Below are positions 126 through 4,217 of a DNA stretch of 32,376 bases, one piece after another. Made by a program: the position numbers and the translations under genes. Origin of the DNA: an uncultured Gammaproteobacteria bacterium (GTDB taxonomy: Bacteria > Patescibacteriota > Microgenomatia > UBA12405 > UBA6130); NCBI GenBank assembly GCA_964540975.1, contig CAZIOQ010000006.1, positions 1 through 32,376 on the forward strand, in the 5' to 3' direction. Within the stretch, counting starts at the first letter, position 1; each line of letters starts with the position of its first letter. The notes under the pieces were generated by a model, which worked only from the letters and a program-made list of their open reading frames with translations, did not search any database and was not told where the DNA came from.

Positions 126-2069
126 ATGAACCAACTGGTTACCTGCCAAATTGTTGGTAATTCTGATCAAAAAGGCTGGAGTCAAATTCATCATCTTGTT
201 CCTAGCAGGAAAAATCTTTGTTGGGGAGAGGCAATTATCCTGATCTCCACACCTTTGACTGATGAAGATGGTCTTAATCTCGGCCGAGAAATCATTTTGA
301 GATTTTATGAAGAATATTATTCCTCCCAACCTCAATCAAAACTTAAAAGATTAAAAGACATTTTAATAAAAATCAGTCAAGAAAAACTTGTCTATCTTGA
401 GAATCAAAATCCCAAACTAGATATTGTCGTAGGAATTTTTTATCAACAATTTGTTTGGTTGGCCACTTTAGGCAAAGGAGAAATTTTGCTTTTTAGAAAC
501 GGCCAACTTTTACCAATTATCAAAGGGGCTGAAAACCTAGTTAAAGTCGCCTCTGGAATAATCCAACCAAAAGACCTTCTGGTCATTGGCAGTCAAGAAT
601 TTTTCAAAACTATCCCTCAATTGACAATTGCTGGCTGCCTGAAAACTGCTAATTTTGACCAGATAAAAGAAATCATTTCTCCCTTGGTTTATAGCCAACC
701 AAAACAAGGTCGGCTGGCCGTAGCAATTATTGCTTCAAAACTCAAGATAGACCAAGCAACCGTTCAGCCAACAACCTTAAGAGGAGAAAAATCACCAACG
801 TCAGCTGGCAAAAACTTGAAAGCTTTTTATCAATCAGTTTTTTTTAAAACAAAAATTAAAAATTGGTTTTTAAGCTTAATTGCTTTTTCTCAAAAAATCT
901 TAAAACGGTTTTTCTCTTTTCCTCGGCAAATTAGAATCAGACCTCAATTTTTATCGTCAACTACTCTTACTCCACAAACAAGTCTTGGTCAAAATCGAAG
1001 CTTAACTTTTGCCGGCCTTGCTTTCTTAACCCTACTTTGTTTAAGCATTCTCCTCAGTTGGCAAAAAAAGAAGAATCAGGATAGGCAAAAATTTGTTCAA
1101 GAAAAAATTCACCAATCCCAAGAAACACTCAAAAACGCCTGGGCAATCAGAGAACTTGATTTAGACAAAAGCCTTACTTTAGCAAAACAGGCGCAACAAA
1201 ATATCCAAGAAGGACTAAAAGTAAATCCCAATCAGCCAACTTTAAAGCAATTATTAAACCAGGCCAATCATCTAATTGATTTGAGTGGCGGCGGAGAAAG
1301 AATTTCTCCAACATTGTTTTTTGATCTTAAAATAATTGCCGATAATGTTTCTGGCTCTTGTCTTAGGCTTAAGCAAGACAATCTTTGGATCTTGGATCCC
1401 CAAGGCCAAAGATTAATTAAACTGGGAATTGATAATAAAAAAACCGCGATCGTCGCTGGTGGAGAAGCTCTAAAAAACCAAAAAAAGATTATTATTACTG
1501 ACAAAAATGTTTATTTTTTTTCTGAAGAAGGGATCAAAAAATTAAAAAAAGAAAACCAACTTGAGCTTGTGATTAAAAATGAATGGCTAAAACCAATTGC
1601 TTTTTCCTCTTGGGGAGAAAATCTTTATCTAGTAGATCGCCAAGGGAAAAAAATCTTCAAATATGTTCCCCAAGAACCTGGTTTTGCCAAACCAATTTCT
1701 TGGCTAACAACAGCTCCCCCAATTGAATGGGAAAAGATTGTTGATCTGGCTATCGATGGCTCTTTATGGCTTTTAAACCAAGAAGGCCGGGTCTTGAAAT
1801 TTACTGCTGGTAGTCAGGAAGATATTAAAACCCCTGATTTTAAAGCTGAAGCCGAATTTTTAACTGTCGCTCAAAAAGCTCCTTTTTTAGCCTTTTGGGA
1901 CACAAAAGAAAAAACTGTTTTGGTTCTGAAGAAAAATGGTCAAATTGTGGCGAAAATTCCCCTTGGGCTTGAAGCTATCAATGGTCTTGCTTTAATCGAT
2001 GATGGCAAAAAAATCTTCATCTTGACTGGTGATAAAATTTATAATTTGGAATTGAATTTCTCGCCGTGA
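126..2069 (+). CDS. Membrane-anchored protein: degenerate PP2C-like N-terminal region, single TM helix, helical stalk, C-terminal beta-propeller (NHL-like)
   Basis: 647-aa ORF. One hydrophobic segment (FAGLAFLTLLCLSILLSW). C-terminal blade-like motifs (NLWILD, NLYLVD, DLAIDGSLWLL). N-terminus has PP2C-like strand motifs (LATLGKGEILLFRNG, DLLVIGS) but lacks the catalytic DG. Overlaps the smpB start (GTGA). Confidence 0.6.
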   Translation: MNQLVTCQIVGNSDQKGWSQIHHLVPSRKNLCWGEAIILISTPLTDEDGLNLGREIILRFYEEYYSSQPQSKLKRLKDILIKISQEKLVYLENQNPKLDIVVGIFYQQFVWLATLGKGEILLFRNGQLLPIIKGAENLVKVASGIIQPKDLLVIGSQEFFKTIPQLTIAGCLKTANFDQIKEIISPLVYSQPKQGRLAVAIIASKLKIDQATVQPTTLRGEKSPTSAGKNLKAFYQSVFFKTKIKNWFLSLIAFSQKILKRFFSFPRQIRIRPQFLSSTTLTPQTSLGQNRSLTFAGLAFLTLLCLSILLSWQKKKNQDRQKFVQEKIHQSQETLKNAWAIRELDLDKSLTLAKQAQQNIQEGLKVNPNQPTLKQLLNQANHLIDLSGGGERISPTLFFDLKIIADNVSGSCLRLKQDNLWILDPQGQRLIKLGIDNKKTAIVAGGEALKNQKKIIITDKNVYFFSEEGIKKLKKENQLELVIKNEWLKPIAFSSWGENLYLVDRQGKKIFKYVPQEPGFAKPISWLTTAPPIEWEKIVDLAIDGSLWLLNQEGRVLKFTAGSQEDIKTPDFKAEAEFLTVAQKAPFLAFWDTKEKTVLVLKKNGQIVAKIPLGLEAINGLALIDDGKKIFILTGDKIYNLELNFSP

Positions 2070-2515
2070 ACAAAAAAATCCATTATTCCAATCGAAGAGC
2101 GAAACGAGATTACTTCATTGTTAAAAAAATAGAGGCAGGGGTGGTCTTAACTGGGAGCGAAGTCAAGGCAATCAAAACCCAAGGAATTAATCTAGATCAG
2201 GCCTTAATCCAACTAAAAGACAACGAGCTTTATCTTGTTAATGCCTTTATTCCAGCTTATAAATTTGCTACTGATAGACCGTATGATCCAAGAGCCAAAA
2301 GAAAACTGCTTTTAAAAAAAAATCAGATCAAAACCTTAATTGCTGCCAAACAAAAAAAACTGGCAATTGTTCCTCTTTCCTGCTATAATAAAAATGGTTG
2401 GATTAAAATTCTTGTTGGTGTTGGCAGAAGAAAAAAGAAGTTTGAAAAAAAACAGGCGATTATTGAACGCACTTTGAAAAGAAAATTAAAAGAAGAGGAA
2501 AACAGATGGGGATGA
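2066..2515 (+). CDS. smpB: SsrA-binding protein SmpB
   Basis: Motifs NRRAKRDY, IEAGVVLTGSEVKAIK, YDPRAKRKLLLKK, IVPLSCY and a basic C-terminal tail; adjacent to tmRNA. Confidence 0.98.
   Translation: MNKKIHYSNRRAKRDYFIVKKIEAGVVLTGSEVKAIKTQGINLDQALIQLKDNELYLVNAFIPAYKFATDRPYDPRAKRKLLLKKNQIKTLIAAKQKKLAIVPLSCYNKNGWIKILVGVGRRKKKFEKKQAIIERTLKRKLKEEENRWG
2381..2389 (+). promoter_or_regulatory. Candidate extended -10 promoter (TGcTATAAT) inside smpB, possibly driving tmRNA
   Basis: Perfect TGnTATAAT about 120 nt upstream of the mature tmRNA 5' end. It also encodes C-Y-N of SmpB, so it could be coincidental. Confidence 0.45.
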
Positions 2516-2871
2516 GGCTGGCTCGACAGGAAACATATTTTGCTGGATGGCAAGCGTCCGTTGGCTCATCGGACTGAAACAAGGCCAAAAAATAATGCCA
2601 AAGAGAATTCTTCTGGCTCTTACGCCTTGGCTTATGCTTAAGGTGTAAGCATCGGCAAAGACTTTTGTCTGGTAAGGTCTTTGCTGGTGTCAACCATACC
2701 AGACTCCAGTTGATGTTTGATTATGGCATCAACAGGAACAAATTCATAATCAAATCCAAAAAGGATTTTGGACAACTTTTACCTTTTTGTGATTATTAAA
2801 GTTGTCTAAGCTTGTAGTAGTCTGGCAAAGTTGTTTTCTGGACCCCCGTTCACCACGGGGCATCTCCACCA
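2508..2871 (+). ncRNA. ssrA: tmRNA (SsrA); tag peptide (A)AKENSSGSYALAYA*
   Basis: 5' GGGGATG (2508-2514) pairs with CATCTCC (2861-2867), including the G3-U alanine wobble, followed by encoded ACCA. T-arm is CCCCG-TTCACCA-CGGGG with an atypical T-loop. Resume codon GCC at 2597 follows AATAAT; the frame reads AKENSSGSYALAYA to TAA at 2639-2641. Confidence 0.96.
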
Positions 2872-2906: not shown

Positions 2907-4217
2907 TTAGCTTTCCCTAATTTCGATTGTAAATCCTTGCAAATCCCTTTTACCAATCAAAACCTTGGTTCGAAGATGAGACCTGTTGGTAACGTTGGCT
3001 GAGGTAATAATTTTTCGACCTCTGAGCCAAAAAACAATCCCAATTACTGGCCGGCGATGTCTTTTCCCCAAAGAAGACTTATAATGTCTATAATACAAGA
3101 TATTATCTTGTTTTAATAAACCTAAATCTTTTGCTGTTTGTTTATCAATTGAGGTTCGGTGAGCACCGGTATCTATTTTAGCAATAATATTAATTTTTTT
3201 ATTGCTCTCGGTCTTAATCTTGATTACCTCAAAAACAGAAAGGGCTTTTACTTTGGTTTTAAAATCAACCTTATCAACAAAACTACCCCCAAATAAAAAA
3301 CGACTAATATTGATCGCATGATCCTCATTTCTTACCTGGATTCCTTCGATTCTTTTCAATCTTTCCTGCAAGCCTGTTTGATTGCAAATTTGAATTGCTA
3401 GTCCTGGCCGCGCATTTAATTCTAAAATCAAAGGTCCTTTTTCTTTGTCTAAAACAATATCCACCCCAACAAAATTCAAACCAGAAACTGCTTTTTGGGC
3501 AGCAATTGCTGTTCTTAAAACCTGCTCCCACAAAGGAATCCTAATACCATTGACTTTAACCATTTTTTTTCTTTTAAGATCATAAATTTTCTCTAGCAGC
3601 TGGTCGCGATAAACTCCGTAGGTGGTAATTCCTGTTGCCATATCCAGACCCAAACCAATTGCTCCTTGATGAAGATTAGCTTTCCCTTTAGATTCTTCAG
3701 TAGGAATTCTTAACATAGCCATTACCGGCACTTGATTAAAAATAATTATCCTGATATCAGGAGCGCCAATTTTGGTAAATCTTAAGAATTGGCCAAAAAT
3801 TTTTACCCGCTCTTCAACTAAAACATAGTCAGGCAGATTATGGAGACTAAATTTTCCCTGAAGGATATCAAAACAATGATATCTTAAACCAGAAATGTTA
3901 ATTTTTGTTCCATCCATTAAAAACCATTCTCCCGCCCACTTAGCCCTTCTTCTGATAAGCAAAACTCCTTCACCGCCAAAGCCACTTCCTGGCTTGACGA
4001 CAAAACCTTCCTCAATTTCTTCCCAAGGAAATTCTAAAACCTCTTTTTCATTTTTTATGACGCCTAAAAGTTTTGGCACTGGTACTTCTGCTTTAGTCAG
4101 GATTTTTTTTGTCCTAATTTTTGAATCAGCAATTTTTTTCGCCAAAGAAGAATTTTGTCTTAAATAATACCAATTACGAGTGTTTTTGGTGAGGATAGCT
4201 TGACTGGTAAAGAACAT
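2907..4217 (-). CDS. Alpha-L-glutamate ligase-like ATP-grasp protein fused to a C-terminal RimK-associated retropepsin-like aspartyl protease
   Basis: ATP-grasp motifs FVVKPGSGFGGEG, DIRII, AMLRIPT..S.GKANLHQGA, GVDIVLD, ILELNARPGLAIQ. C-terminal AKIDTGAHRTSID ... VLIGKRDL pepsin-like motif. Confidence 0.88.
   Translation of the reverse strand: MFFTSQAILTKNTRNWYYLRQNSSLAKKIADSKIRTKKILTKAEVPVPKLLGVIKNEKEVLEFPWEEIEEGFVVKPGSGFGGEGVLLIRRRAKWAGEWFLMDGTKINISGLRYHCFDILQGKFSLHNLPDYVLVEERVKIFGQFLRFTKIGAPDIRIIIFNQVPVMAMLRIPTEESKGKANLHQGAIGLGLDMATGITTYGVYRDQLLEKIYDLKRKKMVKVNGIRIPLWEQVLRTAIAAQKAVSGLNFVGVDIVLDKEKGPLILELNARPGLAIQICNQTGLQERLKRIEGIQVRNEDHAINISRFLFGGSFVDKVDFKTKVKALSVFEVIKIKTESNKKINIIAKIDTGAHRTSIDKQTAKDLGLLKQDNILYYRHYKSSLGKRHRRPVIGIVFWLRGRKIITSANVTNRSHLRTKVLIGKRDLQGFTIEIRES

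Follow-up and report, generated by a model that had tools for sequence, protein, structure and literature searches.

Trans-translation is the main ribosome-rescue pathway and depends on the protein SmpB and on transfer-messenger RNA (tmRNA), the product of ssrA, but how the supply of the two partners is matched is poorly understood. The question arises at a locus in which the two genes share nucleotides. In the stretch of DNA analyzed here, contig CAZIOQ010000006.1 of assembly GCA_964540975.1 (positions 1 to 32,376 of the forward strand, 32,376 nt in all and hereafter called the window), which comes from an uncultured bacterium placed by GTDB in the class Microgenomatia of the Patescibacteriota, smpB ends on a UGA that belongs to the 5′ end of tmRNA. 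A preliminary description of the window, made from the sequence alone, had proposed that this arrangement is a compact device for balancing SmpB against tmRNA, in which maturation of the tmRNA strips the stop codon from the smpB message and the truncated SmpB is tagged and degraded. Is the overlap such a device, or merely what remains when the space between two neighboring genes has been lost? Having followed the junction through other Patescibacteria, we judge that the locus is, on balance, probably a compacted cassette with a captured stop codon, in which the overlap is a tolerated by-product of compaction and not a conserved regulatory device. The overlap nevertheless offers a naturally occurring instance of a rescue system for which its own mRNA is a predicted substrate. 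The draft genome, of which the window is contig 6, measures 638 kb in 63 contigs, is 93% complete, and has a G+C content of 36%.

The smpB gene, identified from the list of open reading frames (ORFs) and by Pfam, occupies positions 2066..2515 of the plus strand, with a GTG start and a TGA stop (2513-2515). Its 149-aa product contains a complete SmpB domain (PF01668, residues 8-143, 129.3 bits against a cut-off of 27, E 1.3e-37), and it is encoded by a single copy; a second one was sought in the genome and not found. The basic C-terminal tail of SmpB is needed for entry into stalled ribosomes, and here it is of normal length: solved SmpB chains can be aligned with the protein as far as its residue 143 of 149 (7ljp_A to 155 of 161), and the length of the protein is level with that of seven aligned relatives, irrespective of whether their genes overlap ssrA. 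On the same strand, Rfam (RF00023) places a one-piece ssrA with an encoded CCA at 2508..2871. The match is full-length (model positions 1-374, 111 bits against a gathering score of 47, E 5e-44), and no other tmRNA in the genome exceeds the Rfam cut-off. The tRNA-Ala-like domain is present, with a 7-bp acceptor stem carrying a G3-U wobble, a T-arm, and a 3′ CCA; GGGGAUG pairs with CAUCUCC, which is followed by ACCA. The tag reading frame (2597..2641, plus strand), as located by the Rfam resume region and by translation, runs from the resume codon GCC (2597) to a TAA (2639-2641) and encodes AKENSSGSYALAYA, preceded by the alanine of the resume codon. It thus has what characterizes a tmRNA tag, namely a resume codon, a stop of its own, and an end in hydrophobic or Ala residues.

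The two genes share the 8 nt GGGGATGA (2508..2515, plus strand), which bears out the preliminary description in placing the smpB stop within the tmRNA. From the second base of codon 148 onward, the last two smpB codons and the stop are tmRNA sequence, and the TGA corresponds to tmRNA nt 6-8. The stop had also been said to lie inside the acceptor stem; this is true of U6 and G7, whereas A8 is, according to the Rfam structure line, the first base past the 7-bp stem. The Rfam alignment and the acceptor pairing both put the mature 5′ end, and with it the predicted RNase P cleavage site, at 2507..2508 on the plus strand. As codon 148 (TGG) begins at 2507, a cut between 2507 and 2508 would leave an smpB message ending in ...AGA-U, just as had been suggested, and both the RNase P RNA (127.8 bits) and the RnpA protein (82.3 bits) are encoded in the genome. 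When run on the window, ARAGORN reports a tRNA-Ala only and leaves the tmRNA undetected, and a run on the genome with -m gave the tRNA set only. Automated annotation may therefore miss tmRNA in such genomes, and gene callers that bar overlaps between coding sequences (CDSs) and RNA genes may truncate or mis-end smpB.

Upstream of smpB lies an ORF of 647 aa (126..2069, plus strand; from the ORF list, with no Pfam family), the TGA of which overlaps the GTG start of smpB by 4 nt (GTGA), and the two are probably carried on the same transcript. No terminator-like site was found on the plus strand between 1310 and 3155, and hence none between smpB and ssrA. We read the locus as a compacted, nested cassette in a Patescibacteria (Microgenomates-type) genome, whose origin and operation can be laid out in three steps. 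In the first, the usual short spacer would have been lost, and smpB would have come to end on a UGA taken from the conserved 5′ end of tmRNA ("stop-codon capture"), with SmpB keeping its normal length and tail. Such a loss would be survivable because two of the three reading frames meet a stop in the first 13 nt of these tmRNAs. In the second, pre-tmRNA would be made, probably in the main, from a sigma-70-type promoter within smpB codons 99-108 and trimmed by RNase P at 2507/2508. In the third, the smpB mRNA would begin further upstream, probably with the 647-aa ORF, and because of this upstream start and the lack of a terminator-like site before ssrA it would have to read into tmRNA. Cleavage of the read-through transcript by RNase P would then remove the smpB stop, and later ribosomes would be rescued by tmRNA-SmpB, yielding a tagged SmpB(1-147) presumably destined for Lon. 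RNase P would act only once the whole tRNA-like domain has been made, including the 3′ strand 360 nt downstream, so that ribosomes close behind the polymerase could still terminate at the UGA. Sequence and comparison speak for the first two steps, whereas the third is one that we infer, some self-tagging being a logical consequence of the anatomy.

Recurrence and lability of the overlap

Two sets of loci were assembled. Those of set A were picked by similarity to the window SmpB or by kinship, and came from 30 relatives plus an order-level sample, from 80 metagenome loci, and from 80 species-representative loci. The 195 tblastn-positive loci were reduced to 169 unique smpB CDSs by removing hits shorter than 110 residues, ORFs running off the locus, CDSs containing N, and identical CDSs. 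The tmRNA lies downstream on the same strand in 107 of these loci and on the opposite strand in 24, while none was seen in the locus in the remaining 38. Its 5′ end could be fixed in 104 of the 107; excluded were L104 and L128, where it was ambiguous although Rfam puts the tmRNA well downstream of the smpB stop, and L165, where it could not be determined. The calls of a method based on hidden Markov models and of one based on acceptor pairing agree in 73 of 73 cases, and Rfam confirmed all overlapping cases. Set B is an even sample of the phylum comprising 150 relatives, of which 135 have a tmRNA; all 135 were examined, but not the additional, partial matches to tmRNA of secondary rank in G146 and G170, two in number.

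The two genes overlap in nine of the 104 set-A loci, the window included, whereas the spacer measures 1-10 nt in 11 loci, 11-50 nt in 23, 51-150 nt in 38, and more than 150 nt in 23. The distribution of spacer lengths is continuous, and the overlaps form its lower end. The −8 register (TGA at tmRNA nt 6-8) accounts for six of the nine overlaps, the −10 register (TAG or TAA at nt 8-10) for two, and the −13 register (TGA at nt 11-13) for one. In set B, smpB ends at most 700 nt upstream of tmRNA on the same strand in 64 of the 135 genomes. Among these 64 adjacent pairs, two overlap, one at −8 and one at −12 (TAG at nt 10-12), and five have a spacer of 0-1 nt. Taken together, the sets hold 11 distinct overlapping junctions with four stop positions, and the same kind of junction is thus present in 10 assemblies besides that of the window. 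The preliminary description had looked to a count of such overlaps across Candidate Phyla Radiation genomes, and to conservation of their frame, as a test; the overlap does indeed recur, but its register varies.

The junction is also labile among close relatives. In a phylogeny of the SmpB proteins from the 104 set-A loci, built with the last six residues removed, the overlap requires seven changes, at least four of which are forced by well-supported branches; shuffled overlap labels need 8.8 changes on average, which indicates weak clustering. In the two relatives from its own family with which the window groups (support 99), the smpB stop precedes tmRNA by 4 and 36 nt, the nearer of these stops being a TAA at the end of an SmpB gene whose product is 70% identical to that of the window. 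Close relatives with a stop just upstream of tmRNA are what the preliminary description itself had named as refuting its proposal. In three further members of the window's family, the 1500 nt ahead of tmRNA contain no smpB. In a second family the overlap is found in three species, which are spread over two genera, and two congeners use different registers, −8 and −13. The pattern is, as far as these comparisons go, that of a tolerated arrangement that has apparently been gained and lost repeatedly and that represents the short end of a continuous range of spacers, not of a conserved device.

Two points weigh against so passive an account. The overlap has persisted in one clade, where three of four members, from two genera, carry it, and this would be compatible with weak positive selection as well. 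Moreover, a general tendency toward compaction at RNA genes does not suffice and was rejected as a full explanation, because the overlap is peculiar to smpB and ssrA: ARAGORN finds 32 tRNA genes in the genome, of which none contains the end of a same-strand ORF of at least 100 codons and only one has a long same-strand ORF ending within 60 nt upstream.

Other arrangements of the two genes were observed as well. In another family of the same order (the f5 loci, for example, L037), smpB and tmRNA are convergent with almost no spacer, and in locus L076 (1346-1706, minus strand) the 3′ end of the tmRNA and the smpB stop, which are on opposite strands, share 3 nt. In loci L135, L137, L139, and others, the SmpB and tmRNA group with Patescibacteria, although the records carry the title "uncultured Gammaproteobacteria" or "Bdellovibrionales", so that the bins have probably been mislabelled.

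Proposed self-tagging and its precedents

The alternative that fares best, which is the reading of the preliminary description and was suggested for Carsonella by Hudson, Lau and Williams 2014 (PMC4131195), is that the junction is a selected autoregulatory loop, in which processing by RNase P turns the smpB message into a non-stop mRNA and trans-translation trims SmpB so as to balance the two partners. The chain of events follows from the anatomy and from the presence of RNase P, smpB is single-copy, and the overlap not only occurs in at least four lineages but persists in one clade over two genera. The cellular setting could also make SmpB/tmRNA dosage matter, as the 93%-complete genome yielded no ArfA, no RNase R (RNB domain), and no ArfB-like protein, that is, no protein with an RF-1 domain beyond release factor 2 (RF2) and a short RF1-like protein. 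Trans-translation is therefore perhaps the only rescue route here. ClpP was likewise not found in the 93%-complete genome, whereas Lon is present and is the sole candidate protease found for a tagged protein, so that tagged proteins may be Lon-dependent. We nevertheless consider a selected loop unlikely. The nearest relatives have their stops upstream of tmRNA, the overlap is rare in the even phylum sample, no junction among the four registers is preferred beyond what stop-codon availability would give, and the spacer distribution passes smoothly into the overlaps. In addition, the promoter embedded in smpB (see below) would decouple the supply of tmRNA from the smpB mRNA, and at low rescue activity a non-stop smpB mRNA would be expected to trap ribosomes and not to raise SmpB output, a loop of this kind being able only to subtract. 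The proposal of a device that balances SmpB against tmRNA is thus not supported by the comparisons, given relatives with stops 4 and 36 nt upstream, four registers, at least four gains or losses, and continuous spacers.

The idea that smpB mRNA becomes a substrate of its own product is already in print for the insect symbiont Carsonella ruddii and is therefore not new. In the passages on smpB in Hudson, Lau and Williams 2014 (PMC4131195), where Mao et al. 2009 are credited for the overlap, the Carsonella smpB is described as running into ssrA on the same strand, maturation by RNase P is proposed to make the smpB mRNA non-stop, and the overlap is said to occur "nowhere else" in about 2000 complete genomes. 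The same prediction in the preliminary description is sound in its logic, considering the same-strand overlap, the presence of RNase P, and the lack of a terminator-like site, but it is not novel. Like Carsonella, the window has the smpB stop in ssrA and a genome that encodes RNase P, and the overlap is labile in both settings, since according to those passages of PMC4131195 it is found in only some Carsonella strains. There are two differences. The Carsonella system is portrayed there as decaying, whereas the window has an SmpB with a full tail and an intact tmRNA, with only two codons and the stop shared; and Carsonella was the sole case in the 2014 survey as reported in these passages, whereas the overlap recurs in several lineages of Patescibacteria. 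That the overlap recurs in this phylum, yet is rare, is new relative to that survey. Its recurrence in intact systems makes the idea testable in a healthier context than that of a degenerating endosymbiont. A literature search covering open-access papers and bioRxiv returned no paper on an smpB/ssrA overlap in Patescibacteria or the Candidate Phyla Radiation.

A second parallel is arfA of Escherichia coli, for which PMC4131195 points to Garza-Sanchez et al. 2011. The gene is reportedly regulated through a non-stop mRNA generated by RNase III cleavage, and its product, ArfA, serves as a backup that builds up upon failure of tmRNA. The likeness is that an RNase strips the stop from the mRNA of a rescue factor and that the product is tagged and destroyed, which for smpB is a prediction. 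However, the status of ArfA as a backup makes for a sensible switch, whereas SmpB is itself needed for tagging. Because of this need, the smpB loop could only bring SmpB down while the system works, and it could not raise SmpB upon failure of the system. The nuclease would also be a different one, namely RNase P acting at the tRNA-like domain. A third parallel is provided by same-strand overlaps between CDSs and tRNA genes, such as that of a Helicobacter FtsW/RodA-family gene with tRNA-Ile in Table 4 of PMC4131195, a paper whose relevant passages estimate non-stop mRNA generated by maturation at about 1 in 15000 mRNAs. These overlaps resemble the window in that a CDS ends inside a downstream tRNA or tmRNA, with a non-stop mRNA as the predicted result. 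They differ in that smpB and ssrA are functional partners, and in the window genome none of the 32 tRNA genes is overlapped.

A stronger form of the proposal would combine both ends of the locus into a mutual nesting that is shared by several lineages of Patescibacteria, with the ssrA promoter in smpB, the smpB stop in the acceptor region of tmRNA, and SmpB, in organisms where no second rescue route was detected, auto-limited by self-tagging and Lon turnover. We regard this as doubtful. If it were true, every full-length smpB mRNA would double as a pre-tmRNA and would lose its stop as RNase P matures it, and the locus would function as a homeostatic loop within an intact system, unlike the decaying Carsonella case.

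A candidate ssrA promoter within smpB

In E. coli, ssrA has its own promoter in the smpB-ssrA intergenic region. The compacted cassette that we favor would retain the principal features of this arrangement, with smpB upstream on the same strand and ssrA separately promoted; in these Patescibacteria, however, the candidate promoter lies inside smpB codons 99-108, where it would constrain the choice of synonymous codons. In the window, a consensus scan and codon conservation point to a sigma-70-like promoter at 2360..2389 on the plus strand, composed of the −35 hexamer CTGGCA (2360-2365), an 18-nt spacer that falls in the 16-18 nt range of such promoters, and the extended −10 element TGCTATAAT (2381-2389), which is a TATAAT with TG one base before it and encodes C106-Y107-N108. 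The two hexamers have 10/12 matches, and a transcript would be expected to start near 2396 and to carry a leader of about 112 nt.

The strongest codon biases among the 169 smpB genes of set A sit exactly on the codons of the two hexamers. At L99, TTG is used in 101 of 127 cases (0.25 expected), and at T100, ACA in 81 of 136 (0.22 expected); at Y107, TAT is used in 142 of 157 (0.67 expected), and at T108, ACT in 89 of 98 (0.33 expected). The consensus of the relatives is TTGACA, 18 nt, TATACT, with an 18-nt spacer in all 107 loci. When the genes were thinned to 24 sequences with less than 55% identity, L99 (15/18, p 6e-8) and T108 (9/9) were the top two of 116 columns.

The presence of the motif follows the arrangement of the genes. 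With at least five of six matches demanded of each hexamer, both were found in 90 of the 107 set-A genes that have tmRNA directly downstream on the same strand and in 35 of the 60 such genes that were scored in set B, four of the 64 adjacent genes being unscorable because of gaps in the 10-residue segment. Where smpB lies 700-6000 nt upstream of tmRNA, a class not separated in set A, the count in set B is 1 of 22 (with a spacer of ~760 nt). Where tmRNA is on the opposite strand or elsewhere, it is 0 of 24 in set A and 0 of 45 in set B (making 1 of 67 for these two set-B classes), and where tmRNA was not seen or not located, it is 9 of 38 and 2 of 11, respectively. When a set-B gene encodes L-T at positions 99-100, it does so with TTGACN in 42 of 47 cases if tmRNA is adjacent, as against 2 of 17 if it is not. 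Counted by family, the figures are 21 of 33 against 1 of 34; these family-level counts are used in place of tree contrasts, and deeper phylogenetic structure remains in them. The −35 and −10 hexamers disappear together, and weak −35 variants accompany a perfect TGnTATAAT, as they do in the window.

Several observations weigh against a promoter at this site. The −35 hexamer of the window matches in four of six positions only, and a promoter scan of the region returns 9 sites against 8.0 in shuffles (standard deviation 2.5). Phylogeny also confounds the association of the promoter with the gene arrangement, which is nearly fixed within families. Independent contrasts amount to five well-supported pairs in set A and three in set B, of which one or two have the expected direction; the opposite direction averaged 0.0 in both sets, though an individual pairing of set B contains one pair of that kind. 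Because the tree of the 140-residue SmpB is too poorly resolved, the sign test does not reach significance.

It could be argued from this that TTGACA-N18-TATACT is not a promoter at all but the mark of protein or codon constraint, or of some other nucleic-acid signal, and that tmRNA is made by read-through only. L-T and Y at these positions do occur in the SmpB of other phyla, as seen in PDB alignments, codon bias also exists outside the hexamers (at K114, at L82, and in a GGC 5′ of the −35), and the phylogenetically independent test, as noted, lacks significance. We nevertheless hold this explanation to be improbable, since the two most biased columns coincide with a canonical −35 and −10 at a spacing kept in 107 of 107 loci, since codon choice for the same L-T residues tracks the gene arrangement, and since the hexamers are lost together and a weak −35 is paired with a perfect extended −10. 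We conclude that many Patescibacteria, including the source of the window, have a candidate sigma-70-type ssrA promoter embedded in smpB. The suggestion in the preliminary description that an internal TGCTATAAT could supply tmRNA independently is thus well supported by synonymous conservation and by the association with a downstream tmRNA. Such a promoter would be a regulatory signal that constrains the synonymous codons of an essential gene across a phylum, and it would explain how tmRNA can be produced without intergenic space. No description of a promoter inside smpB was found in open-access papers and bioRxiv.

Three synonymous-codon excesses lie beyond the promoter itself: AAG at K114 (124/169), CTT at L82, which is the third strongest after thinning, and a GGC glycine codon just 5′ of the −35 hexamer, which is seen in relatives and absent from the window. 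They may be promoter-flanking or leader signals.

The smpB stop codon and neighboring features

The captured stop presupposes that the sequence is correct and that TGA is read as a stop. A small insertion or deletion introduced by sequencing or assembly might have removed or shifted the true smpB stop in this 63-contig draft, and passages of PMC4131195 ascribe some odd smpB ends to sequencing errors. Such an artefact is very improbable here, as the frame gives a normal-length and well-aligned tail up to the junction, and as ten other independent assemblies contain a junction of this type. In this genome TGA does function as a stop, because it terminates many ORFs (104 of 485 long ones), because RF2 is present, and because SmpB ends level with its homologues. 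The encoded RF2 is 362 aa long and has the SPF and GGQ motifs that mark this factor. Treating TGA as a sense codon raises ORF coverage to an implausible 99%. That TGA is instead recoded or leaky, with SmpB extended in frame through the tmRNA to the tag peptide, is hardly credible: the smpB frame does remain open past the TGA for 42 codons (2516-2641) and ends at the tag stop carrying ...AKENSSGSYALAYA, but the tag frame is shared in four of the nine overlapping loci, where about one in three would be expected, and only the window is open throughout, so that the coincidence is best read as chance.

The genome also encodes a short release factor of 232 aa (locus L133, 1420-2118, minus strand; genome contig C21), which has a GGQ motif and an RF1-like P-x-T region. 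In comparison with the full-length RF2, it appears to be without the N-terminal domain.

Downstream of ssrA, a convergent gene (2907..4217, minus strand) encodes a 436-aa ATP-grasp enzyme (ATPgrasp_ST, E 7.9e-59), the C-terminal part of which weakly matches a family of putative zinc proteases, with a score of 24 bits that falls short of the cut-off of 27. On the minus strand, a site resembling a promoter (2933-2904) would point antisense into the tmRNA.

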